The translations under genes and the position numbers were made by a program. Source: Psammoneis japonica (taxonomy: Eukaryota). From it: a stretch of DNA of 64,000 bases. The notes under the pieces were generated by a model, which worked only from the letters and a program-made list of their open reading frames with translations, had not been told where the DNA came from and searched no databases. Positions 18,289 to 60,371 of this stretch are shown piece after piece (the first letter of the stretch is position 1; each line of letters starts with the position of its first letter). The DNA lies in assembly GCA_008632985.1 (NCBI GenBank), contig QPGO01000030.1, positions 495,135 through 559,134 of the forward strand. The letters run 5' to 3'.

Positions 18289-19737
18289 CTAAGCGTGCGC
18301 TGCGTCCGCCGCCGCAACCTTTTGCTTATTGAACGCATCCCAGTTAGCGCGTCCTTCTTGTACTACTTTCTGGATAGCTTCAGGACCAATTACCATCTCT
18401 GAAAGAAGAAACGGGCTTGGTTGCCCCCCCAGGTAGGAGATGACGTTCCCTTCCGCCTCAGAGACATCGATCAATTGCTGAATGGTATCTTCCTCCTCCT
18501 TGGTCCGAGATTGAATGACCTCTTCCAACTTCTTGTTCCAAGACTCAATGACGTCTTCTATCTTCTTGGTTCGCTCCGCCTGTTTCTTGGACTTTGCTTT
18601 CAGCAAAAACTTCCGTTCCGCAATATTTTCGAACATCATAGAGTAAAACTGGATGGAAGGATCGGTAGTGTCTTGCGCCGCAGAGTTCCTTCCGATTGGA
18701 GTGCTCATCAGGAGTTGCACGCCGGCTGCATTTACGATCCCGGGCGACATTTGTGCTCCTGCTGTTGACACTCCGGCCGCTCCAACGTTCACAGTATCGT
18801 TAGTGCTGTGAGCAACAAAGGCATCATTGCCATTCTTTCGCTTTTCACCAAGAAACGGGCTTGGTTGCCCCCCGAAGAAGGAGATGACATTCCCTTCCGC
18901 TTCAGAAACATCGATCAATTGCTGAATGGTATCTTCCTCCTCCTTGGTCCGAGACTGAACGACATCTTCCAACTTCTTGGTCCCAGACTGAACGACCTCT
19001 TCCAACTTCTTGGTCCGCTCGGCCTGTTTCTTGGACTTTTCTTTCAGCAAAGACTTCCGTTCCGAAATATTTTCGAGCATCATAGAGTAGAACTGGATGG
19101 AAGGATCGGTAGTGCCTTGCGCCGCAGAGTTCCTTCCGATTGGAGTGCTCATCAGGAGTTGCACGCCGGCTACATTTACGATCCCGGGCGACATTTGTAC
19201 TCCTGCTCTTGCTGCTCCGGCCGCTCCAACGTTCGGAGTATCGTTAGTGCCGTGAGTTGAAAACGGATTCGAAACCCCGCTACCACCACCACCGTTGGTG
19301 CCGATATTGTCGCCAGGAGTTGGTGTGCGATTGTACAATGACATGGCTGCCTCTTTTTGCAACTTCAGCTCCTTTTCTTCGTGTCGTCGTTGCTTTTGAA
19401 GCAAAGTCTTTCGTACTCCTCGTGCTTTCTTCCGCTTGGCTTCTGCTTGGTTCCACCCAATACGAATGTCGTGATAACGAGCGTTGCGCTTGGCTTCTTC
19501 CCGATCAGCAGCGGCTGTTGCTTGTTCGAAAGTGGCTCGATGGTCGTCAACCTTGGCTTGATGAAGCTCAGCTCTGGCTTGTTGTGCAACGGCTCTATTT
19601 ATGAGATGTGTCTTTGTTCTTTGGGGTGTTTTGAATTTTTTGGTTCGTCTTCCCGCCCGCGCGTTCAAATCGCGCGATGCTTCATTCAATGCAACTCGCC
19701 ACTCGCCACTTGAAATTCGCAAGATAGTGTGTACCAA
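18289..19737 (-). CDS. Hypothetical coiled-coil protein with an internal tandem duplication of ~140 aa
   Basis: 482-aa ORF; the DNA segments ~18408-18810 and ~18852-19255 are near-identical copies. Confidence 0.55.
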   Translation of the reverse strand: MVHTILRISSGEWRVALNEASRDLNARAGRRTKKFKTPQRTKTHLINRAVAQQARAELHQAKVDDHRATFEQATAAADREEAKRNARYHDIRIGWNQAEAKRKKARGVRKTLLQKQRRHEEKELKLQKEAAMSLYNRTPTPGDNIGTNGGGGSGVSNPFSTHGTNDTPNVGAAGAARAGVQMSPGIVNVAGVQLLMSTPIGRNSAAQGTTDPSIQFYSMMLENISERKSLLKEKSKKQAERTKKLEEVVQSGTKKLEDVVQSRTKEEEDTIQQLIDVSEAEGNVISFFGGQPSPFLGEKRKNGNDAFVAHSTNDTVNVGAAGVSTAGAQMSPGIVNAAGVQLLMSTPIGRNSAAQDTTDPSIQFYSMMFENIAERKFLLKAKSKKQAERTKKIEDVIESWNKKLEEVIQSRTKEEEDTIQQLIDVSEAEGNVISYLGGQPSPFLLSEMVIGPEAIQKVVQEGRANWDAFNKQKVAAADAAHA

Positions 19738-35700: not shown

Positions 35701-36040
35701 GGGGGTGAGGGCACCCTTCTTTGTTGGTGTGCAAATGATGTGCAGTTTTTCTCCCTGCCCTCCCTCCCTCCTTTCCTCCTTGGCCTGCGCCACCGCTGCC
35801 CTCTGACGATGCCCAAATGAGAGCGCCGCACATTGACGCCGCAAACTTTTGTTCAAAACAAGGCAGCAAAGGATGCCGCAGCTTTGTCGCCACACTTCCA
35901 CAAGCTCCCGGTCATTGTGGGCCATTGCCACGCACGTGCAATGCTGAAAAACAAGACCGAAACACGACAGTTCCCACATCTGTCCTCGAGACCCAACGCG
36001 TGCGTGACAAACGTTTTCCCAAAACACGCAACAAAAGAAT

Positions 36041-36098
36041 GTGCATCCGCAGGGATTCGAACCCTGGAGTGCGAATGCAGCAGTGCTTGAAACCCGCC
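36041..36098 (-). pseudogene. tRNA-Leu(CAA) 3' fragment
   Basis: Reverse complement contains the TTCAAGC anticodon loop, variable arm, GGTTCGAATCC T-loop and 3' acceptor strand; the 5' half is missing. Confidence 0.8.
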
Positions 36099-36324
36099 AT
36101 TGCTGGAGGGCACCTGTGGATGGATCTGGATTGAAAATGATGCTGCTGTCCACAAGTCATCAACAAAACCAAACTGCGGCACAGCACAAAACTTTGCAAC
36201 AATTTGGAACGAAACACTTCACCGGAATGGTCTGTGGATTTCTTTGTCAGCAGCTTCGTTGTCTCCAGAGTCTGCGCAAATGTGCGAAAATGTGGGTGCG
36301 TTTCATTGTTGAGTTCAATCCTTC

Positions 36325-38900
36325 AACCTTCAATTGTAAATTTACAATGCTCAGCTCAATCCTCAAACATGTGCGGATTTGACGGACAGGTCGGGTTGCA
36401 CGCTTCATGCTCATCCACGCAGAAGAAATCCACTGAACTGATCTTTTGCAAAGTGCGATGCAACTTGTTGCAATTCTTCACACGAGACTGCAAGCAGAGC
36501 GGCATGAAACCGACTTCCTTGTTTGCCAGCTCGTGGAGTGAAGCTTTGTCCATTTGTTGAGCAAGTGAAAGCACTTGCCAAGAAGCACCTTCTGTGTCAA
36601 CACGAGATCAACACGCTCAGCAATGGATTCGTCGATTGAGCCTAGAATCGCTTGTTCTTCCCTCGATTTTTTGCCCATCTGGCAGAAAGGACGACTGCGC
36701 TTGCAAAACTTAATGGACAAGTTCCAGGTCCAGGTGTGACCTCACACTGCTGAACTGTGACATCGACAGTTTTTTGAATCACGTCGCATGTCGCGCGCGC
36801 AGATTTCTGTGTGATTTTTTCGACATTTTGTGTCATTTTGTGGCACACATGTTGAGCGATCCGTCCAACAACTTTTGACATTTTTTGTTACAGTGCGATT
36901 CCATGATGTCTTAAGAATCGCGCAGGGCAGGCGCATTTGCAAAAACACCAAGTGGCAAGAGGCACAATTGCACCACAAACTTGGCCACTTGTTTGATGTT
37001 GAAGACAAACACATCCATTGATTTGGTTCTCGTCCTGCGGAGCTCGCACGTAGAATTCTGCAGGCCCAATGTCACATGGAGTCCCACCTGGGGCTGGAAC
37101 CCATCAATGCGGAATTGCTCGTTGTCCTCAAGGCACTGGCAGAACTCACGATCCTTTTGAGCCAAGATGCTGACTTTTTCAAAATGCAGGTCGTCGCTCG
37201 GAATGCCTTCAATCAATGCACTCACAGCAGCACGACAACACGTGTCCAATCTGCATGCCTTCCGAACTTGAACTGCCTCTTGAAGAATTCCTGATTCTTT
37301 GCATCGTCGATTTCATCAATGAAAGCTGGGACGTCTTGGGTGGGCATGGTTGAAACAGCGAAGGGGGAAATTGTGCGCGAATGTTGGTGGTCGGCGGTGT
37401 GTGTGTTGGTTTTTTGCCTTTTGTTCCGGCATTCTGCTGCTGCTTGTGCTGGCAGCAGTGGGAGTGGCAACTGCCGACAGCTGCTCTCCAGCAGTGGAGA
37501 GCTTCTTTTAGCAGCAGAGAGTGCATGCACCACAGGGGCAGTCGCAGAAACTGTCTCGCACAGCATGCAGATGCAGCACTTCTGTTGATGTGCGCGTGTT
37601 CGATCGCAGGCAGAAACCATGCATGTCTGCACCAAACAAAATCCGGGCACGACAGCACAATGCGCGATGATTCACCACATGCAGAAATCAATGAAAATCT
37701 GTGCCAAACCAGTTCTGATGGGAAGCTCACAGGTCAACTCCACACAAACTGTTCTCATGCAACCAAAGACATCAGTGCCATCTTGACAAAGACCACTCGT
37801 TGTTTGCCTTCGCAGAAGGAAGACATGGAAAAATTGAGGGATCAAGTCCACCATTGTGACAACCGCTGGACCAGGAAGGAGAAAGACAAGCATTGGAGTT
37901 CACTCAAGCGGGGTCACCAGCACTCGTTTCAGTCCGGTAAAAAACAACGGAATGTTGGCTGCACTCCTTGTCCATCCATTCAACAGATCTGCACGGAACC
38001 ACTTTGGAGGGACCCAAAAAATCTGGCTTGCCTTCCGGAATCCCACCGTCCAGTGGGGCTCAAAAAGGATCTCATGATCAGCAGAAATGCCTTGTTGGTG
38101 AAAGCTGCATGCCTCCGCAGGTGCAACATCTGCGCTGCTGTCATTGACCCTGTTGGCAAAGAACATTTGACTGTCAAAAAGTGAGTGTGCTGTCATCAGG
38201 GTTCTCAACTGCATGCCCCAAACTGTCTTTTCTTGCCCCTTTTCCATTGGTGTGTTCCTCACTCTGTTTGTTTTGTGGCAGGTGTGAGGATTGCCACATG
38301 CACTTGCTTGAAAAAATCTTGTTTGCCTTCCACCCATGCAGCAAGTGGTCTGGTGTGAATCCCAACGAAGCTGCTCTTGCTGTCAAGCGCGCCATTGCGG
38401 AAAAGCACTCTGTGCCGGAGGTTGCTTCCGTGATTGATGGTGATCACACTGCGGACGACAATGATTTGAGTGCAGAGCACAATTGCAAAACTGCGGAGTG
38501 CTCCAGCAGGGTTTTGACTGCTCGTTTGCGTCGTTTTCAAGAAGTCGAACTTGGCGCCATGGCGTTCATTCTTGTCACAGATCATCATCGCAAGATGATT
38601 CACGAGCATGACTCTGCACGCGCCACGAACGAGTTCCGAGCTCTTTGCAAATGGCACAAGGAGGCTGCGGAACAGCATGCTCAGACTTTGAATGTCGACG
38701 AGCCAGAGACATTTGCAGCTCCTCTCCGTGACCCCAGCCGCGGTGGTTGCCACTTCAATCACTTGGGTTTCCTTGGAGCTGTTCTCCCTCATTGGGAGCA
38801 CAAATCTGTTGAGCTCAATCTCCCGGAAATCACAATGGAGAGTCCATTCCTCCAGGATCTCTCTCGCACCCATGCGAGCCAGTTGCTTTTCAGGAGACAG
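36325..38900. pseudogene. Copy A of a duplicated unit with two divergent orphan genes (minus ~36350-37345; plus ~37760-38900 with intron 38181-38281)
   Basis: Aligns block by block with 40340-42530; frameshifts and Tyr loss; gtgagt...gcag intron conserved in both copies. Confidence 0.7.
36715..37105. mobile_element. ~400-bp MITE-like insertion in copy A
   Basis: Absent from copy B at the matching site (~40728); imperfect inverted ends gttccaggtccaggtgtgac / gtcccacctggggctggaac. Confidence 0.5.
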
Positions 38901-39354
38901 CAGTGCACCAAAAAAGAAACGGCTGGCCTCCACAACGTCTGCTGCAGATCAACGGTTGTTCGTTGCTTGTTTGTGTTGCATTGGGAGCAGCACATCGTGC
39001 TCTTTGTGGCAGCAACACATGCAATGGACAACATGGCATCAGCTCTGCTCGTGCCCATCAGCATCGTGACATTTTGCCGTTTGCATCTGCTGGAGCAGAG
39101 GCTGCAACGGCCAAATTGAACGCAAAGGGGAGTTGAGAGATTTCTGTTCGAGGTTGTCGTTCTGTTGGCAACTCAATTTTAAGCCAGTCGAGCTGTCTCT
39201 TTCTCTGTGGTTTCATCTTTTCTCTGGAGTCTGTCATGCATTCTGGCGGTGGCGTGCCTTCGCAACAAAGACGTGCATGTGCATGACTTCCGTCCAGCCC
39301 CCCGCACGCCAGTTCGACTTTTCATGTGTTTTTTTTTCAGTTGAATGTGCAAAC

Positions 39355-39684
39355 GCATCTGTGCCCGAGTTGGTCTAAGGGGGCAGACCCAAAAAATGAA
39401 GTTGTGATTCCTTGTGGAAAACAGTGGCAGCAAAAGTGCATCCGCAGGGATTCGAACCCTGGCGTGCGAATGCAGCAGTGCTTGAAACTGCCCCCATCTG
39501 TGCCCGAGTTGGTCCAAGGGGGCAGACCCAAAAAATAAAGTTGGGATTCCTTGTGGAAAACAGTGGCAGCAAAAGTGCATCCGCAGGGATTCGAACCCTG
39601 GCGTACGAATGCAGCAGTGCCCGAGTTGGTCTGTAAGGGGGCAGACCCAAAAAATAAAGTTGTGGAAAACAGTGGCAGCAAAAG
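39355..39684. repeat. Tandem array of tRNA-Leu fragments: plus-strand 5' halves alternating with minus-strand 3' parts
   Basis: Three gtgcccgagttggtc..aagggggcagaccc units, each followed by a shared spacer ending ggaaaacagtggcagcaaaa and then gtgcatccgcagggattcgaaccctgg. Confidence 0.8.
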
Positions 39685-39767
39685 TGCATCCACAGGGATT
39701 CGAACCCTGGCGTATAAATACAGTTGTGCTTGAAACAACCCCCATAGACCAACTCGGGCATAGATGC
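39685..39767 (-). tRNA. trnL-CAA: tRNA-Leu(CAA), apparently intact
   Basis: GCATCTA/TGGATGC acceptor stem plus discriminator A; D-arm CCCGAGTTGGTCTATGGG; GTTGT-TTCAAGC-ACAAC anticodon arm; GTA-TTTA-TAC variable arm; CAGGG-TTCGAAT-CCCTG T-arm; TTTT terminator immediately downstream. Confidence 0.85.
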
Positions 39768-40339
39768 TTGTACCTTTCGGATGGAAAATAGATGATAAAT
39801 ACAACATGTTTGTTTTATGTGTCTGTTCCCCGCCCGCCCCGCGCGCCCGCCCCAGACGCACGGTACAGTGCTGTACGTACGACAACGCATGCTCGTCATA
39901 CGGCAGTTAAATCAGACAGCCAACGAGGCACGGCGACACCCTTGTTGCGACGTTGATGAAACGAAGCGAAACTGACCCATTTCGAACGAGAAGTGTGCCG
40001 CACACATCCAATCAGCTACAACCACGAGACGAAAATCCACTCTTGTGGGACACTTCAAGCCGAACACTGGGCCGAAGGTGGTTGAGAGATGTCGCGACTC
40101 CCTTTTGTGTTTCATTTGGCTGTTGCAGCCAGACAATGTCACTGGGACGGGCTGTGTGTGGATTTGGTGGCGAAAGCAGCTGTGTTGCCTGCTCTGCGGT
40201 GCTCTCGCTGGATTGGCTTTGACTCTCAAAGACAGCCGTTCTAGCGACCCAAACAAGAAGAAGCTGCACGCATCAATTCAGGCCGGGGGGTTGGCAGAGC
40301 ATGCCAAGCTTCTGTTTCATTGGTGAAGCCAAAAATCCT

Positions 40340-42530
40340 CTGACCTTCAATTGTAAATTTATGGTGCTCAGCTCAATCCTCGAACATGTGCAGATTTGAC
40401 GGACAGGTCGGGTTGCGCGCTTCGTGCTCACTCATGGAGAAGAAATCCATTGAACTGATCTTTTCCCACACACGACACAACTTGTTGTAATTCTTCATGC
40501 GTGGCTGCAAGCAGATTGGCATGAAACCGATTTCCTTGTCTGCCAGCTCGTGGAGTGAAGTTTTGTCCGTTTCGTTGAGCAAGCGAAAGCATTTGCCAAG
40601 AAGCACCTTCTGCGTCAACACGAGATCAACACGTTTGGTGATGGATTTGTTGATTGAGTCTAGAATCGCTTGTTCTTCTTTTGACTTTTTGCCCATCTTG
40701 TAGAAAGGACGACTGCGCTTGCAGAACTGAGCGCAGAATTGCTCGTCATCCTTCAGGTGTTGGCAGAACTCACGATCCTTTTCAGCCAAGATGACGGCTT
40801 TCTCAAAATGCGGGTCGTCACTCGGAACGCCTTCAGTTGACACACGCACAGCAGCACGACAGCATGTTGTCCAATCCACATGCCTTCCAAACTTGAGCTG
40901 GTGCTCAAAGAATTCCTGGTTGAAAGGTGAGACATCTTGGGCGGGCATGGCAGTCTAACAATGACAGAAGCAGGGGGGGTTGTGTGCGGATGTCTTGTGT
41001 TGTCTGGTGTGAGGTGTGTTGGTGTTGTCTTCTTGCACTGTTCTGGGCTTTCAGCTTGTCGCAGAAAACATGTCGATGATCTCGCATGTAGAAATCAATG
41101 GAAATCTTCACTGAAAAGATCCTGGTGCGCCAGCGGAGTTTTTGCGTGTTTGACTGCATGTAGAAACACATGGCTGAGCATGGAGCAAAAGATCCTGGTG
41201 CGCCAGCAGAGTTTTTACGTGTTCGATTGTGTGTAGAAACACCCATCTGAGCATGGAGCAAAAGATCCTGGCACGCCAGTGCAGACATTGCGTGATCGCA
41301 TGTAGGGTCGGTCACACAGCCCCCTGCAACAATGCCACATTCGTCGTTCTCACTTCTCACGAGCATCACATCGGCAGCGATTCTCAAGCCAACCAAAGAC
41401 ATCAATGCCATTGTGACAAAGACGACGCGTTTTTCGCCGACGCCTTCGCAGAAGGAAGCTGTGGAGAACTTGAGGGATCAAGTCCACTGCTGTGACAATC
41501 ATTGGACAAAGAAGGAGAAAGATGCGCATTGGAGTGCACTCAAGCGTGATCACCAGCACACATTTCATTCTGGGAAAAAGCAACGCAATGGGAACTGCAC
41601 TCTGCATCCATCCATTCAACAGATCTGCGAGGAACCACTGTGGAGGGACCCAAAAAATCTAGCTTGCCTTGCGGAGTCTCATCGTCCAGTGGGGCTCAAA
41701 AAGGATCTCACGATCAGCAGAAATGCCGCATCGGCAAAAACCTCTTGTCAGTCAAGGTGCAACATTTGCTGCGCCCTCATTGCTCCTGCACGCAGTGAAT
41801 GCTTTGCCATCAAAAAGTGAGTGTGATGTCATCAGAGAAGTGTGCGATCTAAACTTTCTTTTGTCACCCATTGCTCATTGATTCTTTCTTTGTTCTGTTT
41901 GTTTTGCGGCAGGTGCAACGATTGCTCCATGCATTTGCTTGAAAAAATCTCACTCGCCTTCAGTCCAGACAGCCCATGTTCTGATGTGCACATGAATCCC
42001 AACGAAGCTGCTCTTGCCATCAAGCTCGCCATTGTGAAAAACCACTCTGTGTTGGAGGTTGCTGCCGTGATTGATGGCGATCGCAAAACGGACGACAACG
42101 ATCCAAGCATGAAGTGCAATCGCAAAACAGCAGAGCACACAAGCAAGGTGTTCAAGACTCATGAGCGTCATTTTCAAGAAATCATGCTCGGCGACATGGT
42201 GTTTGTTCTTGTCACAGATCATCGTCACAAGACGATTCGGGAACGTGATTCTGCGCGTGCCATGAAAGAGTTCCGCGCTCTTCATAAATCGCGCAAGGAG
42301 GCTACGGAACGGCATGCTCAAAAATTGAATGTCGATGAGCTGGAGGCATTTGCGGCTCCTCTCCGTGACCCCAACCATGGTGGTCGCAACTTCAACCACT
42401 TGGGCTTCCTTTGAGCTGTTCTCCCTCATTGGGAGAGCAAATCTGATGAGCTCAATCTCCCAGAAATCACAATGGAGAGTCCATTCCTCCAGGATCTCTC
42501 TCGCACCTGCGCAAACCAGTTGCTTCAGGG
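40340..42530. pseudogene. Copy B of the duplicated orphan-gene unit
   Basis: ORFs 40373-40948(-), 41332-41820(+) and 41842-42414(+) are homologous to copy A; this copy still keeps some Tyr (FYKMG, KNYNK). Confidence 0.7.
41085..41300. repeat. Three imperfect ~73-bp tandem repeats
   Basis: tgtagaaa...aaaagatcctgg(t/c)(g/a)cgccag recurs at ~41087, ~41159 and ~41232. Confidence 0.75.
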
Positions 42531-44569
42531 GACAGCAACAAAGAACGCACAGGAAAATGATCAGCTTTGTTGAAGAGAATGTTTTTGTAATGTCTGGATT
42601 AGATCATTGTAAACACAAACAAAACGTGCAACTTCGATCGCCGGGAGACTTGATCAATGTCCTTCAGACTGTGCTGCGCTTTAGCCAAACCGTGCAGTGT
42701 GACGCGTTGAGTGCATCTGGGACAGCTTCGCTCAATTGCATCAAGCAGGCACATTGTGCAAGAAAACCAATGTCTAAAACCAATGTTCAAAGAACTTGCT
42801 AAAACATGATCTCTTGGATCTGACACAGATCTGAGTTGAAATGCCTTTCCCGATGCTTCGCTGCCTCCAGCCTCTCTTCCGATGAATGCACCACAGCTGT
42901 CCAATGCAAGCTGGGGAGAATCAAAGGTGGACCCAGCCTTGCTGGAGACGGCAGCAATGAGAGAACCAGCTTCTTTCTTGCCTTTTCAAGACGGGAAAAA
43001 CATGAGAAAAAAGGAAACGTGAAAAAGCCCCATCGCTTGGTTTTGATGTGGTTCTGAACTCAAATGAGGGAAGCAAATGAATGACAAAAAGGCCACATCC
43101 TTCATCACAATGAGATGTGAGAACTTTCACTGAGATGTGATTCCAGCCCTGGGCATTTGAAAAAGCAAGCAAGAGAGAGAAGAGGGGTGCAGGGCTCCAT
43201 GTGTGACAGTGCCCATGCTTGCCTCGTGCGCTCCATCCCAAGGTGGGAATTCTTGGACATTTGTCAATTCCGTGTGTGAGCTCTGCAGCTCATGCAATGG
43301 GTGGAATCTTTGGCACAAAAACAAACAACATTTTTGCAGCGCTGCCCCAGCTTCAAAAATTTTGAAAATGAGCGACTGTCTGTGCACCCAGTGTGCTCAA
43401 AGAGAGAGCGAGTGCAAAGGAAAGCAGAGCAAATCACGAAAAGTGAAAATTGTGAGATTGGATTTTGCTCCACAATTTCAGGTTTCTTTGAATGAGTTCT
43501 CAATGGCCCAAATTGCTTGCTCTGCTTCTGCAAACCAAAAAGGCCTTTCGGGAAATCCAGCAGCAACAAGAGCAGCAGATTGCCTGGGTGCAATCAAAGC
43601 TGACATCTCATCTGTCAACATCATTGATCAATTCTTGCACTTGCAATTTTAGACATCCAACCAATTCTGTGCAATTGTTCTGACCTTTGTGCGCATCCAT
43701 GACTTCCATGTGATTGACACTCTGCTTGACAGTGCGTGCTGCACTCGCCTCCCCAATTGCACATTAGGGTCTCTTGTCAAATGGAGCCATTCAACAGACA
43801 TTGACAGCATCAACAACCTTGCTCCTGGTGTGCATTGTGCATGATGCACATGCAAAATTCAGTGGGGGGTCTTGCAGAATGACACCCAAAAGAAAGCACA
43901 TTGTCCTGGCAGCTGCTGCTCACCTTCCAGATGCTGCAAGCTGCGCAATCCTTCAACCATGCCTGTCAGCAGGGCCACCTTGAGCAGCTGCTCAGAGGCA
44001 CAGGGTGCCAGCAAGAAAGGCCTTGTAAAATGAGCGAAATGCACATTTTGACAAACTTCAATGTTGCTGAACAATGCTCACAGGATGTGTTGCCAATGCA
44101 TGCTCCACACCAGCACATTTCCTGCTGACACACAACAAATGATTCTTGCTGTGAAATTGTGCGCAGCTGGTCCAGCATGTTGGGTGGTGTTGGGTGTTGA
44201 AACCACAAAAGACACGTGGCAAATTGGCAAGAAATCAAAGCAGTGTGAGCTTGCAGCCACCGTGAGCTCAATGAATCCTGCCACCAGCTTTTGCATGTCC
44301 CCACCCACCATTTCAGTCTGTGCAAAATCAAAACAATTCAGCACATTTTCAAGTTTCCAGTGAGTCCTGGAGCTGTTTGTTGTCAAGCTCAGCAAAAACC
44401 CACTCTTGTGGTGAATTTTTTATTGTTGTGCTGTCCCCAGCACCCCATGGCTTGTTGCAGCACAATTCTGTTGCAAAGACAGAGCCCACACCAAAGCTCT
44501 GGTGACAGTCATTTCTGTGCAGCAAAACACAAAAAAGATCAGCACCACCTCATCTTGTGTTTCATGGCT

Positions 44570-45420
44570 GCACCACTGACTGCTGCTCCAACCACCCAAA
44601 ACCTTCACTCGCTCCTGCATCTCAGACCAAAAGTTGCCCCCACCACCACTTTGCCAACAATGAAAGCCTGTCAAGATCTGAGAACACAAACTTGGGCAGC
44701 TCAAGCATGACCTCAATGAGCCCAGCTGCTTTGCTGATGTGCACCTGTCAATGACAATGGAGGATGCAACCCAAGGCAGGATCATGCACGTCAGATCCAA
44801 CTGGATGCCAGCACCCTGCCAACTCACCAACAGCACTCAATGCCAGTGCAGCATGTTTCAAGCAAGATTGCCCAAGCTCTTTGCAAAATGCCAAGGCCCT
44901 CAGCTGGGCTTGCAAACAAGACAACTTTGTTGTCACCCAATGTGACAAAAACCTGGGCCCTGTCATCATGATGGGAAAAACTGAGCATGCCAAGATGGCG
45001 TCTTGAGATCACCTCAACAGCCCCAATGCATGCCAAAGAAAACTTGACAGTGGCTGGCCAACAATGCACAAAGCAAGCCTGTCTTCTGCAGAGCACAACA
45101 AGCACCTGAAGAGCCAGGTTGATGCTTCCTGAAGACACACCCTTCCCCATCTTCCACCTTGTGCTGAAGGCACACAAATCCCTGCCAATGTGAGCATGCT
45201 TCCTGAAGACACACCCTTCCCCATCTTCCACCTTGTGCTGAAGGCACACAAATCCCTGCCAATGTGAGCATGACCTGTCTTCTCTGTGAGTGATGGTTTG
45301 CTTGGGAACATGAGTCAAGGACAAGCTCCAACAAGCTGCTTGGCCCCAATGACCACAGCACTTCAAGACAAGCTCTTGAGCTGAGACAACAACAACTCAC
45401 CCAAGTGCAAGCTGGCACAC
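44570..45420 (+). mobile_element. Degenerate Penelope-like RT N-terminal fragment with an exact 74-bp tandem duplication (~45122-45270)
   Basis: QCDKNLGPVIM and PFPIFHLVLKAHK peptides match 54360-54620 of the longer copy. Confidence 0.75.
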
Positions 45421-50929: not shown

Positions 50930-52094
50930 GACTGTGCAAACCGCCACTCTCTTCCCACATGCTGTCTGGCCTCATGGTGGGCATGTGCATTTTTGGCTCA
51001 AAAGCCTCTGCTCCAGCCTCAACAACACAAAATTGAAGACGAAGCTTCCACGCCTTCATTTGCAAGTGTGTGGCTGCAAGCCCAGCAATGAGCTGCAGCT
51101 GCTGCTTCAATTTTGGCAATGCACCCAGAGCAGATGCACCCCCAGCATCCCCCCGCCCCCCCCTCCATGTGCACGTGCCACTTCACCCAAACAACCTGCC
51201 ATCCAGCAAACTTTGAAAGCTTTGGAAGGGAGACATGGCCCACATCTTCTTGCACATCCCATGTCATCTGTCACCTGGCCAAATGACCCACCATCAAGCA
51301 AGCTGCAGAAGCTCCAGAAAGTGACAATGGCCAACCCTCCCTTCTCACAACCCCTCTCAAACCTCCACAATCATGTGCAACAATGTGCTGAACTTGATTG
51401 CATGATTGCCTGCTGTGCAGTTGCTTGCATGACCTTGGAGATTTGCTCTCACACTGCAACCTTCACATCTCCCATGCCCCCCCCCCCCCCCCCCCCCCCC
51501 ACTTTCATCCTGCGATCTCACTCCAAGGCTCCCACCTTCATGCCACCCTCTGCAAAAAAAAAAGTTTGTTCCACCCCACTCAGCTCATCCACCTCTGGAG
51601 CACACACTGGCCTGATCATGGGCATCCTCTTCCACTTCAAAAACATTTGCTCCAACACTGCCGATGCAAAAGTGAAAACAAGACCACTCTGCCTTTGACT
51701 TCAAGCTTGAGGCCACAAGCCCAGCAAAATGCAACTGCTCTTCAGAAAGGCACATGTCCTCATCTTTGGCAATGCCACCAGAACAACTCAAAACCCCCAG
51801 CCAAATCCCATCTTCTTGCCCATCCCTTGTCACCCAAATGACCTGCCATCGAGTGAGCTGCAGGAGCTGTGGAAAGGTGCAATGGCTGCTCCTCCCTGCT
51901 CACAATCCCCCTCAAACCTTTGAAATCATGCTCAACAATGCATCAGCCTTGACTGCATCATGATTGTCTGTTGCAGCCAGCACTTGCACAACCTTGGAAA
52001 CCTTCTTTCCTGCTGCAAACTTTGCATCTCCCATGCCCCCCAGTTTCATCCTGTCGGATTGCAAACAGGGTGGCCAGTTTGTTCAAGCAAGAGA

Positions 52095-52128
<34 letters not shown>

Positions 52129-52130
52129 AA
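50930..52130 (+). mobile_element. Two tandem 3'-end fragments of the Penelope-like element, the second ending in (GA)n
   Basis: Homologous to 55300-55800 (HP.G..TGLIMG, NDPPSSELQ.LW, NLGNLLS); poly-C at ~51476-51500; GA/GACA tract 52090-52130. Confidence 0.8.
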
Positions 52131-52232
52131 GACTGCGTGGTGAACTGATTTAAAAAAAAACAACAACTGATCAAGTCTGCTTGTCTGTCCTCCACCAGTT
52201 GGATCTTTTAATGCAACAACCTCAACCACATC

Positions 52233-52296
52233 AACAACAGCAGCCAGCCACTGATGAAGCAACTGTGAAAGTCTCTCTCCTGACTTCAGCCAACAG
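52233..52296 (+). ncRNA. Minimal type I hammerhead ribozyme, degenerate (copy 1)
   Basis: CTGATGA at 52251, GAAA at 52267, GTC/GAC stem III, TT at the cleavage position. Confidence 0.55.
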
Positions 52297-55200
52297 CTGG
52301 ACAAATGTCTGAACCAGCAGCTCCACCTTGGCTGCTTGCATTTCTTGTTTGTCACATTTGAAGGAAAGTTGGCTTTGAAGTGCCAATTTTGTTTGTTGTG
52401 CCTGCCATTTGCTGAAGCAGTTGGACAAATGTCCGGTCAAGCAGCTCTGCCTTGGCTGCTTGCACCACTGTTGTTTGTCACATTTGACGGAAAATTGGCT
52501 TCACCAATTTTGATCGTTCGTTCAAGAGAGAGTGCAGTGACAACAATGGATGCTGCAACCAAGACCACCAACCCAAAACGTGCGCATTTCAATTCAACTG
52601 CGGTGAACCCAGCCAACCAGCAAACAAGGACATCCCTTGCCACCACCACCCAATGCATCAGGGACCACATCGTGTGGCTCCAACCAGAAACAGCCACCAT
52701 CCTCGAGAAGCTTGCTGTCAACCAAATCCAATTGCAAGCCAAGGCCTGTGACAAGGCCTTTCATGTCCAACGGATGGAAAAAGATGAGGAGTTCACCCCC
52801 CGCTCAACCCAAATCAACTTTGAATTTCAAATGTCAAAAACCGCTGAACAGAGCCAGGAGTTCTTGGCTCTGCAGGAGGAAACCAACGACCTCATCTCCA
52901 ATGCCCAAAAAGCCTTCAAAAAGCAAGTCATCCAAGCCACCAGGGTTGAACTTCACGTCATCCAAGAAGAAATTTTGGAGTCGTTCGCGAAAGCCACCCG
53001 ACTTGCAACCAAGAGTTTTGCTGTGGCCAACAGCATCACCACACCTGTCGACACCGCAGTGGTCACCCTGCTTGACTGCTGCCATGAAATGCTGCCAAAG
53101 TGCATCAAGGTCAAGAACCTCAATGTGTCCCTCACCAAATGCAAGGCAGCAAATGCTGTTGCTGACCTGCCACAACCGCTGGTTGCCCCTGCCGCTCGAC
53201 AATCCCAAACTCAAGATGACCGAGCCAGCGACTCCTTGTTCCTTGCACAAGAAGCAGTGCCAGCACCTGCCACTCTGCAAATCACTGCTGCACAACAGAA
53301 AATCGAGACTGAACTCAGCAAGATCTTCCGGGCGCTTGAATGCATCTTCATGTCTCCCTGGACCACCTGCCTGGCAACCAAACAGAAACATGACATCAGC
53401 CTCCAATTGAAAAAACTCAACAAGGAACACTTCGATGCCAAGGCCACCAAGAGCGCCAACATGGAAATTGATGGCAAAGCCACAGTTGACCCTCCCACTC
53501 TCCAAGAGCTCATCTGCAAGGAGACCGAGAAAAATGCCAAAAAGCTCTCCCAACAGGTCAACTCGCTTGCTCAATGCCTCAAGTCCATCAAAGCACAGCA
53601 GTCAAACAACCTGAGGGGCCAAAACTGCACCGCCGGCGCCTCATCACAAAAAGAAAAAGGCAAAGGTGCCCCATCGGATCGCACGAGGAAACAACACCCT
53701 CAATGCGACCGTGAAGCCGACAATGCCGACAACAACACCGCCAGCACAAACAAAAACAATTGACACGACTCCAAATCGAAACAGCAATCAAAAAAGAAAC
53801 AGCAGCGCTCCAACAACAGTTGGAACAGGCACCAGAGGCAACAACTCACTGAATCCATCGCACATGCGGATTCGTCACCAACCCATCTCACACAATCCAA
53901 CACAACGCCTGCACCCACCTGTGACGCATGCCCGCCTGGTGCTGCTTCAACAGGCCCTCACACCTTGCCTTCCATGACTGCACCACCACCAAACAACCTC
54001 CAATCACTGCTTGGCCTTAGTTTGAAATTTGTCCCTGCTCCGCGCTTCACCAACAACGGGAAGTCCTCCAAGATCCAAGAACAAACACTCGGAAGATTCA
54101 AACAAGACCTTGACAAACGAGATTTCTTCGCCAACGCACCTGTCAATGACGATGACAGAGGTCACAATCCCAGGATGCACCTCTGTTCCAACTGGACGCC
54201 CCCCTCCCTGGAAACTCACCAACATTGTCACATGCTGACACACAACCTTTGAATCACAAGTCACCAACCTCCTTGTGAAACGCCGTGGCAGAACCAACCT
54301 GCTGCCCCACCAACAACGTGCCCTGGCCTTTCTTCACAAACAAGACAACTTCACAATGGCCCAATGCGACAAGAACCTGGGGCCGGCCATCATCAAAAAG
54401 ACCGAATGTGCAAAGATGGCATTTTGCAACCATCTCAACGGCATGAATGCGCGCCAATTTTTGAGCGAGTTTGCATCAAAAAACTCCTCAATGACTGGCT
54501 CAAGGAACACAAAAATGGCCTCACACACTCCAATGGAATGCAAGTGCCTGAAACATTGCCTTGAAGCTAACAAAGACCCACCCCCCATCTTCCACCTTGC
54601 TCTGAAGGTGCACAAAGCCCCTCCGCTTTGATCCCGACCGATCGTCTCTGCCAGCGGCAGCCTGCTCTACGGCTCAGGCATCTGGGTGGATGACAAGCTC
54701 CAGAAAGTTGCGCGCCGCCAACAACCATGCTTCAAGAGCTCTGTGGACCTGAAACAAGCACTCGTCCAAATGGAGGTGCCATCGAACTGCCTCCTCTTCA
54801 CATCCGATGCCGAGGCCTGCCACTCCAATGTGCCCACCAAAAAAACACTTCGATTGATTGCTTCCCACCTCCGATGTCATGAACACGAACATGACGACAT
54901 GCCAACGGATGCCCTTGTCAAAGCCCTCCAAATTGTGATGGAAAATGATGCACTCACCTTCGGAGACACTGCCTGGCACAAGCGCAACGGAGCTGCCATG
55001 GGCACACCACCCGCCCCTCCATGTGCCACTTTGCACTGCGCACTTCACGAAGACATGCTCCTGGAGGAGTTCAGCTCCCAGCTTTTTCATTGCAAACAAT
55101 TCATTGATGACGTCTTCAGCATTTGGCACATTGCTGACACTGCCGCTGATGCCGCCACCTGGGAAGCATTTGCCTCCAGGCTTGATGACTTCAATGTCAC

Positions 55201-55797
55201 ATGGATCACGAGCCCACAAAGCCACCAAGTTAACTTCATGGACCTGACGATCTCACTCCAAGGCCCCAACATTCACACTGCCCTCTACAAAAGAGAAATG
55301 AACCTCTGCATGTGTGTCCCACCTCACTCAGCTCACCCGCCTGGAGCACTCACCGGCCTCATCATGGGCATGCTTCGCCGCTTTAAAAACCTGTGCTCCC
55401 AAAAATGAACTTGCTCCACCTCCGACTGCAAGCTGGAGGCTGCAAACCTGGCAAACTGCAGCCGCTCTTCCAAAAAGCGCGTGACCTCATCTTTGGCAAT
55501 GCTGCCAGAACAGCAGAAGAGCCCCAGTCAAACCCAATTTTCCTGCACCTTCCCCATCACCCAAACAACCCACCATCAAGTGAACTGCAGAAATTGTGGA
55601 AAGGTGCAGTGGCCAACCCTCCCTGCTCACAGCCCCTCTCAAACCTTCGAAGCCACGCCTGACAACGCATCGGCCTTGACCGCCTGATTGTCTGCTGTGG
55701 TCGCTCCCACAACCTTGGAAATCTCCTTTCATGCCGCACACTCCGAGTCTCCCATGGCACCCCAGTTTTGTCCTGTCGGGTTACAAACATGGAGGCC

Positions 55798-55838
<41 letters not shown>

Positions 55839-55937
55839 AACTTGATTTGAGTTCAACTTGATTTGAATTGAACAGATTCAATCAACCTGTCTGTCCTTCT
55901 TTGGATCTTTTTAATGCAACAACGCCCACCGCACGTC

Positions 55938-56008
55938 AACAACAACAGCCGGCTGCTGATGAAGCCACCACGAAAGTCTTGTTCTCCTGACTTCGGCCAA
56001 TGTTGTTG
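55938..56008 (+). ncRNA. Minimal type I hammerhead ribozyme (copy 2, best preserved)
   Basis: GGCTG-CTGATGA-AG(CCACCA)C-GAAA-GTC..GAC-TT-CGGCC; stem I is extended by caacaaca/tgttgttg. Confidence 0.7.
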
Positions 56009-56128
56009 TGCCTGCCATTCACTGAAACAGTTGGACAAACATCCAATTAAGTGGCTCTGCCTCAGCCACTTGCACTGCTGTTGTTTGTCACCTTTGACAG
56101 AAAATTGGCTTTGCCAATTTTGATCATT

Positions 56129-56169
<41 letters not shown>

Positions 56170-56263
56170 CAGAGAGAGAGAGATGGTGATTTGATTCAAA
56201 TCATTCCAATCAACTCATCTGTCCTCCTTTGGATCATTTCAGTTCAACAATGCCCACCATGTG

Positions 56264-56334
56264 AACAACAGCAGCCAGCCACTGATGAAGCCACCATGAA
56301 AGTCTCATGCTCCTGACTCTGGCCAACATTGTTG
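56264..56334 (+). ncRNA. Minimal type I hammerhead ribozyme (copy 3)
   Basis: GCCA-CTGATGA...GAAA-GTC..GAC-TC-TGGC, with a paired stem I and a CUC cleavage triplet. Confidence 0.65.
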
Positions 56335-56450
56335 TGCCTGCTGTTTGCCAAAACAGTTGGACAAACATCCAATCAAGCAGCTCTGCCTCAGCTGCCAGCA
56401 TCATTTGTTTGTCACATTTGACAGAAAATTGGCTTCACCAGTTTTGATTG

Positions 56451-56488
<38 letters not shown>

Positions 56489-56499
56489 GGGGAAGACAG

Positions 56500-57245
56500 A
56501 CAGATCATCATGGGCACATGCTGTTCCAACTCCAAAACCTTTGCTCCAATCCACAGGATGCCGGAGCCAAGATGAAGCTGCAGTGCAGTTGCTTGCAAGC
56601 CTGCGGACACAAACCCAACCAACTGCAACCAATTTTCCATGAAGCACGCAACCTGATTTTTGGAAATGCAGCCAGAACAGCAGCACCCCAGTCCAACCCA
56701 ATCTTTCTCCACATGCCCTTCCATCTGAACGACCTGCCTTCAAATGAACTTCAAAAAAATTGGAAAAGTGCTGTGTCCCAGCCACCCTCCCTGCTCACAA
56801 CCACTCTTCCACGGACCTTTGCAACTGTGCATGATGATGCATTGGCCCAGCCCACATGATTGCATGCTGCAGCTGTGCATGCAACCTTGGGAACTTGCTG
56901 TCACACCACAAGCTTGTGTGTCCTGTGGCCCCCCAGTTTTGTCCCGCCGGATTGCAGGTGTGGGAAGGCCACTGCTGCAAGAGAGAGAGAGAGAGAGACA
57001 GAGAGAGACAGAGAGTGATCAACCAGCTGTGGATTTGAAAACCAGTCATTCAAATTCACCCATCTGTCCTCCCTGCAGCAACAGCTGCACCTCGGATCTT
57101 TTTGACAGAAGAGCTTCAGCCACCACAGTCAACAACAGCAGCCAGTTGCTGATGAAGCCACCACAAAAGTCTTGCTCCCAACTTTGGCCAGTGCCACTGT
57201 GCTTGCCATTTGCTGAACAGCTGGACAAACGTCCAAATCTTTTCA
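56500..57245 (+). mobile_element. Further Penelope-like 3' fragment, (GA)n tract and pLTR module with a broken hammerhead (CTGATGA at 57149, GAAA mutated)
   Basis: LQACGHKPNQLQPIF...NLIFGNAAR homology to the long copy; GA tract ~56980-57016. Confidence 0.75.
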
Positions 57246-57906
57246 GCGCAACAACCTCTGCACACTTGTGTTGGCGCTCTCTCCCCCCCCCTGTGCGCCT
57301 CATCTCAGAGCCCCGGTGGCCATGCTGACACAAACAAGCAGCACGAGGACAATGCACACCATTTGAAAAAAGGGGGGGCTGCTTCAAATGCTTTTTTATT
57401 CAAGCACAATGCTCTGCCTCTCTTGTCATGTTGGCGGGGCGTTGTGCCGAGAATCATTCAACTCATTTCCCGCTGGCTCTTTTTTCAAGTTTGTCTTTTT
57501 AAGTTGAGAGTGAAAGAGCCCAGTCAGTGAAGAAAGGAGAGGCAGCAACTTGCCTCATGACCCACGCGGAAGCTGCACAAGAGATGCCACCTGTCTCATC
57601 CATCAAAGTGGAGGTGGGACGGCCGGGAACCAGCAACCTGCAGCAAGGAGCGAGAACAGGCGCAAATGATGTGAAACAGAATCCACCACCACACGTCAGT
57701 CGTGTTTTGGCTTTTTTGGAAGGCGGCGCCACATCATGGATCGTGCATGGCCACATCCGGCAGACCTGACTGACTGACTCATGATTCATGATGTCCGTCA
57801 CCGAACCGCTGCCAACGAAGTACCTCACCAAATGTACATGGTTGTGAAAAGCGGAGTCATACGGTGTTTTGAGGTTCATAACGCTAGTTGATGCATTACA
57901 GCAATG

Positions 57907-59099: not shown

Positions 59100-60371
59100 A
59101 TGACAATGATGACAGTTGCAACGAGAGGGACACTGTTGCGGCTCGAGATCTGGGCATTGTGCTTCCTTCTTGTTTTTGCTAGATTGAATGGATTTTCGTT
59201 GAAAGTACAACGAGATCCTCCGCCAGCCGTACGAGACAGCGCCGTACGAGAAAGCAAGAGTGGTGTGCCGTTGACGTGCATTGCTAATTCAGATAGGAAG
59301 GAGGAGCCACTTCTCGCTTCTCGTTGCCTCAAACAGGCAAAAGAATCTTTGTCGGTTTCAAGAGCAGATTTTCTGGCCGTCTCTACGGTAGCGTTTATGA
59401 CAGGCTTTTCGCAACCGCCACCAGCAAAGGCAACTCCAGATCAAGAGTCGGATGCAAAGAAGCCGTCGTCGATGGAGTCCATTGCGACCAATTCCTTTGC
59501 AAGCACGTTAAAGGAATCTATTAGCGGCTTTGCCGCCGGTGCATCAGTCTCCGCATCAAAAACCATAATCAAGTACCCGCTCGACACAGCTACAGTTCGT
59601 CTTCAAATGCCGCAAACAGAGTACAGTATTTTCAGATTAGGCCAGCTCTTTGACGGAAGCTTTCGCGGGGTATCTGCACCACTTATCAGTAACATTCCCG
59701 CGGGAGCGATCTTCTTTGCCGTGAAAGATGCTGCCAAAGCAAATCTGCGTTCCGCCGGTGTTTCCAGGTTGTCTTCCACAGCCATTGCAGTCGCACTAGC
59801 ACAGTGTCCATATTGGCTTGTTCGAAATCCAAGCGAAGTGATCAAAACACGGCAGCAATCTGGGATTGATGGATATGGTGAAGGCGTGTCTATATTGGAT
59901 GCTTTTAGACTGGCTAGCGGTGATAATGCCAAGGAGGGAACCACCAATCGCACTGACATCAGCGGTCTCTACGTGGGATACTGGGAGAATATCTTTTATG
60001 CCTATCCCGCTGATGTTATCAAGTTTGTATGCTATGAATGCGTAACTGGTGGCAGAAAGGATCTCTCGCCTCAAGAAGGGGCTATTTCAGGCGCATTGTC
60101 AACTGCGGTGGCACAACTTCTTACAACTCCGCTAGATGTTGTTCGAAATCGTGTAATGGCCGGCGAAGACCAGTCGATTAAAAGTCAAGGGACAAAAGAC
60201 GAGAACTCATATATAAGTAGTCTTGTCGGTCTCTTCAAGCAAGAAGGTCTCCGAGGATTGTTTGCCGGAACTGCTCCTAGAGTAGGCAAAGCAATATTGA
60301 GTGGCGCTATTCAATTCGCCGCTTACGAGGATACAAAACAGAGAATAGGCAGCTTTTTCGTAAACAAATAA
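59100..60371 (+). CDS. Mitochondrial carrier family protein (SAM-carrier-like) with N-terminal targeting extension
   Basis: Three PxD/ExxK/RxR signatures: YPLDTATVRLQ, NPSEVIKTRQQ, TPLDVVRNRVM. Confidence 0.88.
   Translation: MTMMTVATRGTLLRLEIWALCFLLVFARLNGFSLKVQRDPPPAVRDSAVRESKSGVPLTCIANSDRKEEPLLASRCLKQAKESLSVSRADFLAVSTVAFMTGFSQPPPAKATPDQESDAKKPSSMESIATNSFASTLKESISGFAAGASVSASKTIIKYPLDTATVRLQMPQTEYSIFRLGQLFDGSFRGVSAPLISNIPAGAIFFAVKDAAKANLRSAGVSRLSSTAIAVALAQCPYWLVRNPSEVIKTRQQSGIDGYGEGVSILDAFRLASGDNAKEGTTNRTDISGLYVGYWENIFYAYPADVIKFVCYECVTGGRKDLSPQEGAISGALSTAVAQLLTTPLDVVRNRVMAGEDQSIKSQGTKDENSYISSLVGLFKQEGLRGLFAGTAPRVGKAILSGAIQFAAYEDTKQRIGSFFVNK

Follow-up and report, generated by a model that had tools for sequence, protein, structure and literature searches.

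The window, by which we mean the whole stretch of 64,000 nt of DNA analysed here, contains a single tRNA gene according to ARAGORN, a tRNA-Leu(CAA) on the minus strand (39684-39767), and this gene lies inside a domain of 25.9 kb (about 31957-57820, unstranded) that is depleted of TpA, poor in CpG and rich in TG and CA by dinucleotide counts. Around the gene is an island that has kept its TpAs, bordered by tandem units made of tRNA pieces, and a long repeat, called R, occurs in two copies. The domain is apparently devoid of genes. No real Pfam family was found in 50 of the 95 open reading frames of at least 110 aa nor in 140 of the 301 open reading frames of at least 55 aa, a scan that took in small frames only right of 44.7 kb; both sets gave only sub-threshold or low-complexity matches. 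A homologue search with one open reading frame of the repeat found none, and a protein atlas built on language-model neighbours held no usable match for a frame of 501 aa. Codon-position periodicity between the two copies of repeat R is weak.

The depleted domain and its mutational signature

TpA occurs at 2.5 per kb in the domain (64 over 25,236 bp, with the island and the tandem array excluded from the count), compared to 39.0 per kb in the left and 40.8 per kb in the right flank, while TG and CA together reach ca. 214 per kb inside and 139 per kb outside. As a share of TA, TG, CA and CG combined, TA makes up 0.008-0.028 in the domain and 0.165-0.172 outside of it. Judged from this composition, the mutational process in the domain is a change of TpA to TpG or CpA that has converted nearly every TA outside the island. 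The residual TpAs outside the island occupy refractory contexts, and a per-strand survival model fits all 64 of them (Pearson X2 8.9, 12 df) and beats a uniform rate (p 2e-16), the hazard decreasing in the order A>G>C>T with the nucleotide that precedes the T; the rule can be put equally well in terms of the complementary nucleotide that follows the A. This model fits with the two strands being hit independently. If hot contexts are defined as ATAN, NTAT and GTAC, hot TpAs occur at 21 per kb outside the domain, and across the whole domain there are only 22, of which 17 fall within 39536-39899. The nearest hot TpAs bordering the domain stand at 31956 (left) and 57821 (right), so that both of its edges are very sharp.

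Comparison of duplicated sequences points to the timing of these changes. The two copies of repeat R, both on the plus strand, are about 80% identical (copy A, 36300-38895, TpA 3.5 per kb; copy B, 40311-42535, starting 544 bp upstream of the tRNA, TpA 6.7 per kb) and differ at 36 dinucleotides by CA against TG, for which CpG decay accounts in at most about 13 cases. Between the first two tandem units beside the tRNA gene, three of four differences are TA against TG or CA. From TpA losses between copies of both kinds we infer, with the direction set by parsimony, that the mutator was active after duplication and that the changes arose in place.

The closest known counterpart is the chlorarachniophyte Bigelowiella natans (Rhizaria), in which TpA-directed hypermutation of integrated viral DNA has been shown experimentally (Mettrop et al., bioRxiv 10.64898/2026.01.13.699255) and for which the same preprint proposes adenine deamination as a genome defence, a chemistry that the mutator of our domain would share if this proposal is taken over. 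As far as the preprint's text describes them, both systems change TpA to TpG or CpA on either strand in sharply bounded regions tens of kb long, and in both the resulting clusters are TpA-poor, rich in CpA and TpG and mostly beyond annotation in content. They differ in host, the genes of our window being closest to those of diatoms, and in depth, TpA making up 0.25% of dinucleotides here as compared to 3.3% in the Bigelowiella NCLDV region; furthermore, the Bigelowiella target is viral, whereas the open reading frames scanned in our domain gave no viral match. A rule based on positions -2 and +1 and a hole around a tRNA gene are both absent from the text of the preprint, though its supplements may contain context data, and tRNA appears in that text only as the normal substrate of the deaminase (bioRxiv 10.64898/2026.01.13.699255). 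In the literature searched, we found no report of a TpA signature in diatoms nor of a tRNA-centred hole. Fungal RIP is alike in being a dinucleotide-specific hypermutation of invaded or repeated parts that leaves block-wise skewed composition, but it changes C to T mainly at CpA and thereby creates the TpA that is destroyed here. RIP also requires duplicated sequence, whereas stretches of our domain without any repeat in the window (38900-39350 and 39916-40135) are depleted as much as the repeats.

An intact tRNA-Leu(CAA) gene within a spared island

The preliminary description of this DNA had claimed an intact tRNA-Leu, and besides ARAGORN this is borne out by a full-length match to Rfam RF00005 on the minus strand (model positions 1-71 of 71 at 39685-39767; 48.9 bits, gathering score 29; E 1.4e-08), with all four stems and a variable arm. 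The T arm and the D arm carry a B box and an A box, GGTTCGAATCC and TGCCCGAGTTGG, in keeping with the consensus sequences of these Pol III elements. On the tRNA strand, a TTTT run (39680-39683) lies 2 nt past the discriminator base and probably terminates Pol III. What such boxes and T-runs do has been described (PMC13578239). Upstream, the TATA-like sequence TATTTAT (39795-39801, minus strand; -28 to -34) sits at a putative TFIIIB position. Given its full cloverleaf, TATA-like element and TTTT run, the gene looks active. A metagenome scan with a tRNA-Leu pattern, meant to supply an outgroup for the two tRNA sequence types described below, yielded at least 120 loci; among the matches listed there was no close relative, the best being bacterial or distant eukaryotic tRNAs.

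As the same description had noted, the gene is part of a TpA-rich stretch in the middle of the depleted domain, and the words quoted from it are present (CGTATAAATACAG at 39711, CATAGACC at 39743, GATAAATAC at 39794 and GTACGTACG at 39873). This island (39685-39915) holds 15 TpAs in 231 bp where 0.59 are expected at the domain rate (Poisson P 1.5e-16), and the richest other window of this size in the domain holds six. Refractory contexts can be rejected as its cause because 14 of the 15 TpAs stand in the most mutable contexts, which elsewhere in the domain survive at 0-3%, and the context model expects just 0.61 of the 15 sites to survive domain exposure. Five of them, all hot, are located inside the gene (39713, 39715, 39719, 39745 and 39761). 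The other ten, nine of them hot, lie together with 14 CpG in the 148 bp measured 5' of the gene (39768-39915; the spared flank itself, on the minus strand, spans 39768-39908), in agreement with the earlier claim that non-coding upstream DNA is protected too. TG and CA amount to 142 per kb in this flank, matching the 139 per kb seen outside the domain, which leaves no sign of conversion. Sparing extends beyond the 3' end of the gene into a second flank (39536-39684, minus strand) that comprises the trailer, part of a third tandem unit and the right part of the second, with TpAs at 39536, 39604, 39634 and 39655. All 20 TpAs between 39536 and 39908 have been kept. They mark out a spared interval of 373 bp or more with the gene roughly in its middle, as 190 bp of it lie on the left side and 182 bp on the right side of the gene's centre (39726).

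These positions bear directly on purifying selection, i.e., the notion that TpA changes were harmful in a tRNA gene that is essential and probably present in one copy, and in the promoter of this gene. Selection of this kind would cover the five TpAs inside the tRNA and three in or beside the TATA-like element (39789, 39796 and 39800; -22 to -33) but neither the five TpAs 97-141 bp upstream (39864, 39874, 39878, 39899 and 39908, four of them hot) nor the four located 30-149 bp past the terminator, and we know of no Pol III element at either distance. Even inside the gene, A-to-G changes in stems give tolerated G-U pairs, so the five sites should not all hold. Selection on the tRNA alone is hence insufficient because the flanks are spared too. 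In a variant of this explanation, hits would be tightly clustered and linked selection would then shield neighbouring sites, but a Bigelowiella line gained 2-45 changes over 186 kb (bioRxiv 10.64898/2026.01.13.699255), a density much too low for linkage over distances of 200 bp. Overall, we regard purifying selection as a highly improbable cause of the island.

To the right, the island ends abruptly, with its last TpA at 39908 and the next one at 40017, and gives way to a converted spacer (39916-40310, unstranded) that has two TpAs, both cold, in 395 bp and keeps CpG at background level. CpG retention therefore does not track TpA retention and is no independent sign of an open island. The stretch is covered by one DNA sequencing run, accompanied by two further runs of the same sample and with no RNA run listed for it, and parts of the spacer (40136-40195 and 40206-40313) are similar to other contigs from this run. 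An assembly artefact at this junction was rejected since an independent short-read contig of 762 nt spans 39662-40422. On the left side, short-read contigs break at 39593-39653, within the repeat. An apparent joint between 39488 and 40343 in the contig alignment might be mistaken for a deletion allele, a possibility that we rejected because the joint represents the paralogous unit A aligned on unit B.

Tandem units, tRNA fragments and the age of the island

Left of the gene lies an unstranded array whose unit 1 (39352-39494) consists of an inverted tRNA 5' half, a spacer and a 3' part of the tRNA on the minus strand, followed by unit 2 (39495-39620), which shares 97% identity with unit 1 across 126 nt and differs from it at four sites. 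In unit 1 the two hot TpAs (39395 and 39465) are gone and a cold CTAA at 39376 is kept, whereas none of the hot TpAs of unit 2 has been lost. The preliminary description had seen here a mutation gradient in which duplicates lose TpAs with distance from the gene, citing words that are all found in place (CGTACGAAT at 39602 against CGTGCGAAT at 39463; AAATAAAG at 39533 and 39652 against AAATGAAG at 39394). Two of three variable sites follow this trend (AATAAAG to AATGAAG and GTACG to GTGCG), but the third is reversed, as the farthest unit keeps TAAGG (39376) where the middle unit has CAAGG (39515). Ordered by position, the sites form a step between 39515 and 39536 instead of a slope, with 39395, 39465 and 39515 lost, although a test on three variable TpA sites has no statistical power.

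A further fragment on the minus strand, copy A (36031-36101), comprises the part of the tRNA between the anticodon loop and the 3' end. Its sequence agrees with that of unit 1 in 51 of 52 positions despite unrelated flanks, and no TpA is found within 180 bp on either side of it. The array and this copy provide a natural comparison of three fragments: tRNA fragments with a B box but without an intact 5' half are not spared. We also considered that the inverted 5' halves, which are followed by an A-rich run, might derive from a SINE or other retro-copy of the tRNA. This was rejected because an inverted repeat, CTGCCCC...GGGGCAG, delimits the halves, which stop short of the anticodon loop. Between the upstream flank of the intact gene and the DNA adjoining the inverted 5' half in unit 1, homology extends over ca. 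10 nt at most and is too weak to be of use.

The same comparison raises the question of age. Relative to the intact gene, the three neighbouring fragments show 7-8 differences in 52 positions (seven in unit 1 and eight in copy A), several of them compensated stem pairs, so that there are two types of tRNA sequence, one in the gene and one in the fragments. Moreover, when unit 2 is aligned with unit 3, the 73 columns to the left of the tRNA body contain one substitution and the 38 columns inside the body six (Fisher p 0.006). Because the intact gene has diverged from the fragments and divergence jumps at the 3' end of the tRNA, the gene body may be a later replacement, and the tRNA body, perhaps with its upstream flank, could have arrived after the main loss of TpA by replacement, gene conversion or serial site-specific integration at the 3' half of the tRNA. 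The abrupt right edge of the island would fit such an arrival, as would the lack of homology between units A and B in the spacer that separates the tRNA from repeat R, which persists in purine/pyrimidine coding. The fragments, moreover, cover the anticodon loop to the 3' end, which presumably resembles the stretch of tRNA genes that integrating elements duplicate.

A very recent insertion with sharp junctions had been named in the preliminary description as an outcome that would refute its reading. The jump in divergence and the right edge speak for junctions of this kind, but no direct or inverted repeat of at least 8 bp links the two sides of the island, and the contigs of the run contain no second copy of the tRNA body or upstream flank at 80% likeness or more that could have served as donor. 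Depth over 39715-40080 corresponds to one contig, although this evidence from the contigs is weak as filters drop some of them. Hot TpAs survive to the left of the breakpoint as well (39536, 39604 and 39655), in DNA shared with the array, and unit 1 is by definition as old as unit 2, yet it has lost both hot TpAs and unit 2 none. We therefore consider younger or replaced DNA unlikely, though it deserves to be taken seriously.

Alternatively, the mutator might recognise foreign or repeated elements by their sequence or edit them before integration, and the tRNA gene with its flanks would then be original host DNA left between insertions, with no guidance by local chromatin. The very sharp edges of the domain and of the island on its right would suit this explanation, as would the presence of two copies of repeat R and the likeness of 40136-40313 to other contigs of the run. 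Hypermutated regions of Bigelowiella are indeed integrated viral DNA (bioRxiv 10.64898/2026.01.13.699255), and tRNA genes are known landing sites of mobile elements, with TRE5-A integrating about 50 bp upstream of them (PMC3159450). However, units 1 and 2 arose locally by tandem duplication of DNA derived from the tRNA, and three of their four differences are TpA losses, which argues that the process acts in place and on tRNA-derived sequence. Stretches that are unrepeated in the window are depleted like the repeats, and no Pfam family, homologue or language-model neighbour marks the domain as viral or as a transposon in the open reading frames scanned. This explanation, which combines recognition of elements by the mutator with a host origin of the tRNA and its flanks, appears unlikely to us.

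Possible exclusion of the mutator by a Pol III gene

The best reading of the island, which we hold tentatively and with somewhat less than even confidence, is that a Pol III complex or the open chromatin around it excludes the mutator. A functional, Pol III-transcribed tRNA-Leu(CAA) would be located inside a silent block, and the mutator would be directed to the silent chromatin state or have access only to it. The complex of TFIIIC, TFIIIB and Pol III and its nucleosome-poor surroundings would lack this state, so that the tRNA gene would form a hole in the targeted domain with step-like edges on both sides. This exclusion is supported by the spared interval being roughly centred on the gene and by the fragments, internal controls that lack an intact gene and are not spared.

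A precedent comes from yeasts, where tRNA genes and TFIIIC reportedly act as heterochromatin barriers. In such barriers, a Pol III gene in or at the edge of silent chromatin keeps its surroundings unsilenced, and the assembled transcription complex is needed for this effect. The yeast barrier separates a silent from an active side, whereas TpA is equally scarce on either side of our tRNA gene (left, 2.6 per kb; right, 1.8-6.7 per kb), which makes the gene a hole or island and not a boundary. The read-outs differ as well, histone marks in yeast as compared to a mutational footprint here. Another analogy is offered by the CpG islands of vertebrates, short regulatory regions occupied by protein that retain a dinucleotide lost around them since the modifying process is kept out, but they differ from the TpA island in dinucleotide, chemistry, polymerase and organism, and the parallel is one of analogy only.

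TpA-directed hypermutation has been reported once so far, in the 2026 chlorarachniophyte preprint, and our window adds the same signature in a genome with diatom-like genes, run almost to completion, together with a quantitative context rule with independent strands that narrows the candidate enzymes. It further adds a natural footprint, in that something about the intact tRNA gene, and not its fragments, would exclude the process over a few hundred bases. One may speculate that Stramenopiles and Rhizaria share an old, strand-independent defence which edits the A in 5'-(A>G>C>T)TA-3', removes TpA from silenced DNA and reads chromatin state instead of sequence, with every active Pol III gene in a target block leaving a tRNA-centred footprint of ca. 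370-500 bp, but we regard a scenario of this breadth as doubtful. If it were true, TpA islands would be a sequence-only map of germ-line protein occupancy in these algae. The window has a single tRNA gene, and the rule of a halo around it is thus without a replicate here. Recurrence of the footprint at other Pol III genes would make chromatin-state targeting testable from sequence alone and would show how a cell retains essential genes within DNA that it is destroying. With regard to the tightness of the exclusion, the contig of the sequencing run reads C at 39715, where the window has the T of a TpA inside the tRNA, and the island may thus not be fully immune.

Extent and origin of the TpA depletion

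TpA is the rarest dinucleotide across the window (observed/expected 0.38), and 1-kb windows hold 0 to 8 TpA per kb throughout 32001-57000, save for 39001-40000 with 21, compared with 26 to 72 in the flanks. Leaving aside the island around the tRNA gene and the adjoining tandem array, the depleted domain (31957-57820) carries 64 TpA in 25,236 bp (2.5 per kb), against 39.0 per kb to its left and 40.8 per kb to its right. Its edges are sharp: immediately outside it, TpAs in a hot context (ATAN, NTAT or GTAC) stand at 31956 (left) and 57821 (right). Outside 32-58 kb there are long uninterrupted ORFs, including a mitochondrial SAM-carrier ORF (59100-60371) whose top matches are unnamed proteins (best 61% identity) and whose named relatives among the 120 matches listed are nearly all from diatoms (Odontella, Attheya, Seminavis, Chaetoceros, Pseudo-nitzschia and Amphora). 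For the gene on the domain's left side, too, the nearest proteins are from diatoms (best match 61% identical, source label "Asterion..."); its homology to relatives starts at residue 218 of the stop-to-stop frame, which implies about 300 bp of normal DNA between its likely start and the domain edge. On these matches the organism is taken to be a diatom or something near to one.

Inside the domain, TG and CA are both elevated and CpG is lowered unevenly, CG making up 0.066 of pyrimidine-purine dinucleotides at 42.5-57.8 kb, 0.17-0.19 in both copies of the repeat described below and 0.25 outside the domain. CpG observed/expected stands at about 0.1 in 43-52 kb versus 0.6-0.84 in 36-43 kb with near-complete TpA loss in both, suggesting either that the two decays are uncoupled or that the blocks differ in age or methylation. 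At 52500-54250, CA is about twice as frequent as TG (e.g., 38 versus 17 and 43 versus 14 per 250 bp), A-over-T skew is high and G-over-C skew is low, reflecting either unequal hits on the two strands or a skewed original sequence.

The domain contains two copies of a repeat of 2.2-2.6 kb (repeat R; copy A 36300-38895, copy B 40311-42535); their alignment of 1,732 columns contains 231 transitions and 95 transversions. CA in one copy faces TG in its partner at 36 places, 18 in each direction. Independent CpG decay, gauged from the CpG states of the copies (36 CG/CG, 33 CG versus TG, 28 CG versus CA), predicts only about 13 such pairs, so that at least about 23 must derive from TpA lost separately in each copy; other adjacent double transitions are few (3-5 each). 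Among the young tandem units near the tRNA gene, units 1 (39352-39494) and 2 (39495-39620) are 97% identical over 126 nt, and three of their four differing sites are TA versus TG or CA. Judged by these comparisons, the TpA depletion of the domain is mutational and arose in place. The two copies of repeat R both retain TpA at the same two places (36337/36343 and 40354/40360; TTGTAAATTTA). Of these four TpAs only 40360 (TTAT) is in a hot context, the others being cold: GTAA in each copy and TTAC in copy A.

The 64 residual TpAs are a non-random sample by context. No ATAC, ATAT or GTAC survives in the domain, compared with 199, 112 and 138 sites outside, and ATAG and ATAA are left with one and four survivors (158 and 192 sites outside); pooling ATAT, ATAC/GTAT and GTAC gives 0 survivors versus 449 such sites outside. 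CTAC, CTAG, GTAA, CTAA and TTAA persist at 7-33% of expected density, TTAA at about 33%. We fitted a model of independent hits on each strand with a hazard set by the base 5' of T (A 3.32, G 1.76, C 1.16, T 0.50), which describes all 16 contexts well (Pearson X2 8.9 on 12 df) and better than a uniform rate (p 2e-16). By symmetry, the data are equally compatible with a hazard set by the base 3' of A (T>C>G>A). Under this model the contributions of the two strands multiply, which points to a mutator enzyme that would act on one strand at a time.

The single paper that we found on TpA-specific hypermutation is a preprint on Bigelowiella natans, the main text of which describes mutation-accumulation lines where two integrated viral regions took 231 of 302 nuclear single-nucleotide mutations, all but one of these 231 being A-to-G or T-to-C on TpA, and proposes an ADAT2-like deaminase as the agent (bioRxiv 10.64898/2026.01.13.699255). 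By term search, sequence context, flanking bases, trinucleotides and diatoms are absent from that main text, and tRNA figures there only as deaminase substrate. The process around the island appears to be this recently described TpA-to-TpG/CpA hypermutation of the B. natans type, in this case acting on a diatom-like genome and following a context rule that can be measured.

A tRNA-Leu(CAA) gene and its spared flanks

ARAGORN finds one tRNA in the whole window, Leu(CAA), which Rfam matches over the whole model at minus-strand positions 39685-39767 (48.9 bits), with TATTTAT at -28 to -34 and TTTT 2 nt past the 3' end on the tRNA strand. Together with 148 bp upstream it forms the island (39685-39915) that the preliminary description had picked out as retaining TpA, and this island is real and far beyond chance: 5 TpA in the gene and 10 in the upstream flank give 15 in 231 bp versus 0.59 expected (P 1.5e-16), while other 231-bp windows of the domain hold at most 6. 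Fourteen of the 15 stand in contexts with 0-3% survival elsewhere, the fitted exposure predicts that 0.61 of the 15 would survive, and 17 of the 22 hot-context TpAs in the 25.9-kb domain lie within 39536-39899. The sparing of non-coding upstream DNA is borne out as well, and TG+CA shows no excess there (142 per kb versus 139 per kb outside the domain); this flank is CpG-rich (14 in 148 bp). That selection retains the island's TpAs, ten of which sit in the flank, is improbable.

A public sequencing run, assembled independently from short reads, yields a 762-nt contig that covers 39662-40422 and departs from the window by one base change and one insertion of a single base, indicating that the right junction of the island is real. 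At 39715 (a TpA of the tRNA variable arm) and at 38982 (next base G), short-read contigs of this run, the one public run with the locus, carry C in place of the window's T; the difference at 39715 may be an allele or an error. Upstream of the island, two pieces of converted spacer at 40136-40313 are about 83-88% like other contigs of the same sample, one of which has a depth of 222 in a second run, suggesting that this piece is part of a repeat with further copies in the genome or sample.

When the whole window is reduced to purines and pyrimidines, so that transitions leave no trace, the only tRNA-like pieces in it are the gene, both copies of the array and one fragment (36031-36101), all of which keep the B box. 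Within 180 bp on either side, TpA number 0 around the 36-kb fragment, 4 around that of unit 1 and 17 around the intact gene, and these unspared fragments argue that carrying the tRNA 3' sequence is not in itself enough for protection. The fragments at 36031-36101 and 39426-39496 share orientation and 51 of 52 nt in unrelated flanks (22/51). They extend from anticodon loop to 3' end and bracket 3.3 kb that hold copy A of repeat R, an arrangement that we take to resemble the direct-repeat scars of elements integrating into tRNA genes. A mutator that targets foreign elements only is an unlikely explanation of the island.

Shape and history of the spared interval

Left of the tRNA gene lie three tandem units, the third ending in the intact gene, each composed of an inverted tRNA 5' half, a spacer, a trailer and a tRNA 3' part (minus strand). 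By position, and as far as these units allow TpA sites to be deduced, TpA is kept at 39376 (CTAA, cold), lost at 39395 and 39465 (both hot) and at 39515 (cold), and kept at all 20 sites from 39536 to 39908, most of them hot; the next TpAs to the right, at 40017 and 40242, are in cold contexts. With a minimum length of 373 bp (39536-39908) and a maximum of about 500 bp, the spared interval reaches 190 bp left and 182 bp right of the gene centre. A mutation gradient with distance from the gene had been proposed from two examples, which are correct as quoted, but a third site (TAAGG at 39376, CAAGG at 39515) runs in the opposite direction; from the sites at hand, retention looks like a step and a gradient is unestablished.

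Compared over 52 positions, the intact gene has 7 mismatches to unit 1 and 8 to the 36-kb fragment, several of them forming compensated stem pairs: acceptor-stem pair 7-66 (A-U in the gene, G-C in the fragments), two anticodon-stem pairs (one by double transversion) and one variable-arm pair. By this comparison, the fragments did not simply decay from the gene in its present form. An alignment of unit 2 with unit 3 has 1 substitution in the 73 columns to the left of the tRNA body but 6 in the 38 columns within it (p 0.006), which places a historical breakpoint at the tRNA 3' end. That breakpoint is the main support for a later arrival, in which the gene body and possibly the flank would be a replacement, an account that we consider rather doubtful: hot TpAs are retained left of the breakpoint too, and unit 1 is as old as unit 2, yet both its hot sites are lost. 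Repeats of at least 8 bp bracketing the island were not found; the run's contigs also gave no further copy of either the gene or the flank upstream at 80% likeness, which is weak evidence. The best single explanation, held tentatively, is exclusion, whereby a Pol III complex or open chromatin at the tRNA gene would keep the mutator off the gene and its flanks. Pol III promoters and tRNA gene numbers are among the subjects of PMC13578239.

Other repeats in the window

In the most decayed part of the domain, two 74-nt units form a perfect tandem (45122-45269, 100% identical), an identity that implies a very recent duplication; a third copy at 54560 is 64% identical. The stretch 51200-57250 repeats a unit of some 3.7 kb at 66-84% identity (e.g., 51509-52293 with 55243-56000) and has (GA)n runs at 52090, 55800, 56130, 56450 and 56980. 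Outside the domain, a coding region carries a 407-bp tandem duplication of 92% identity (18406-18812 with 18850-19256).
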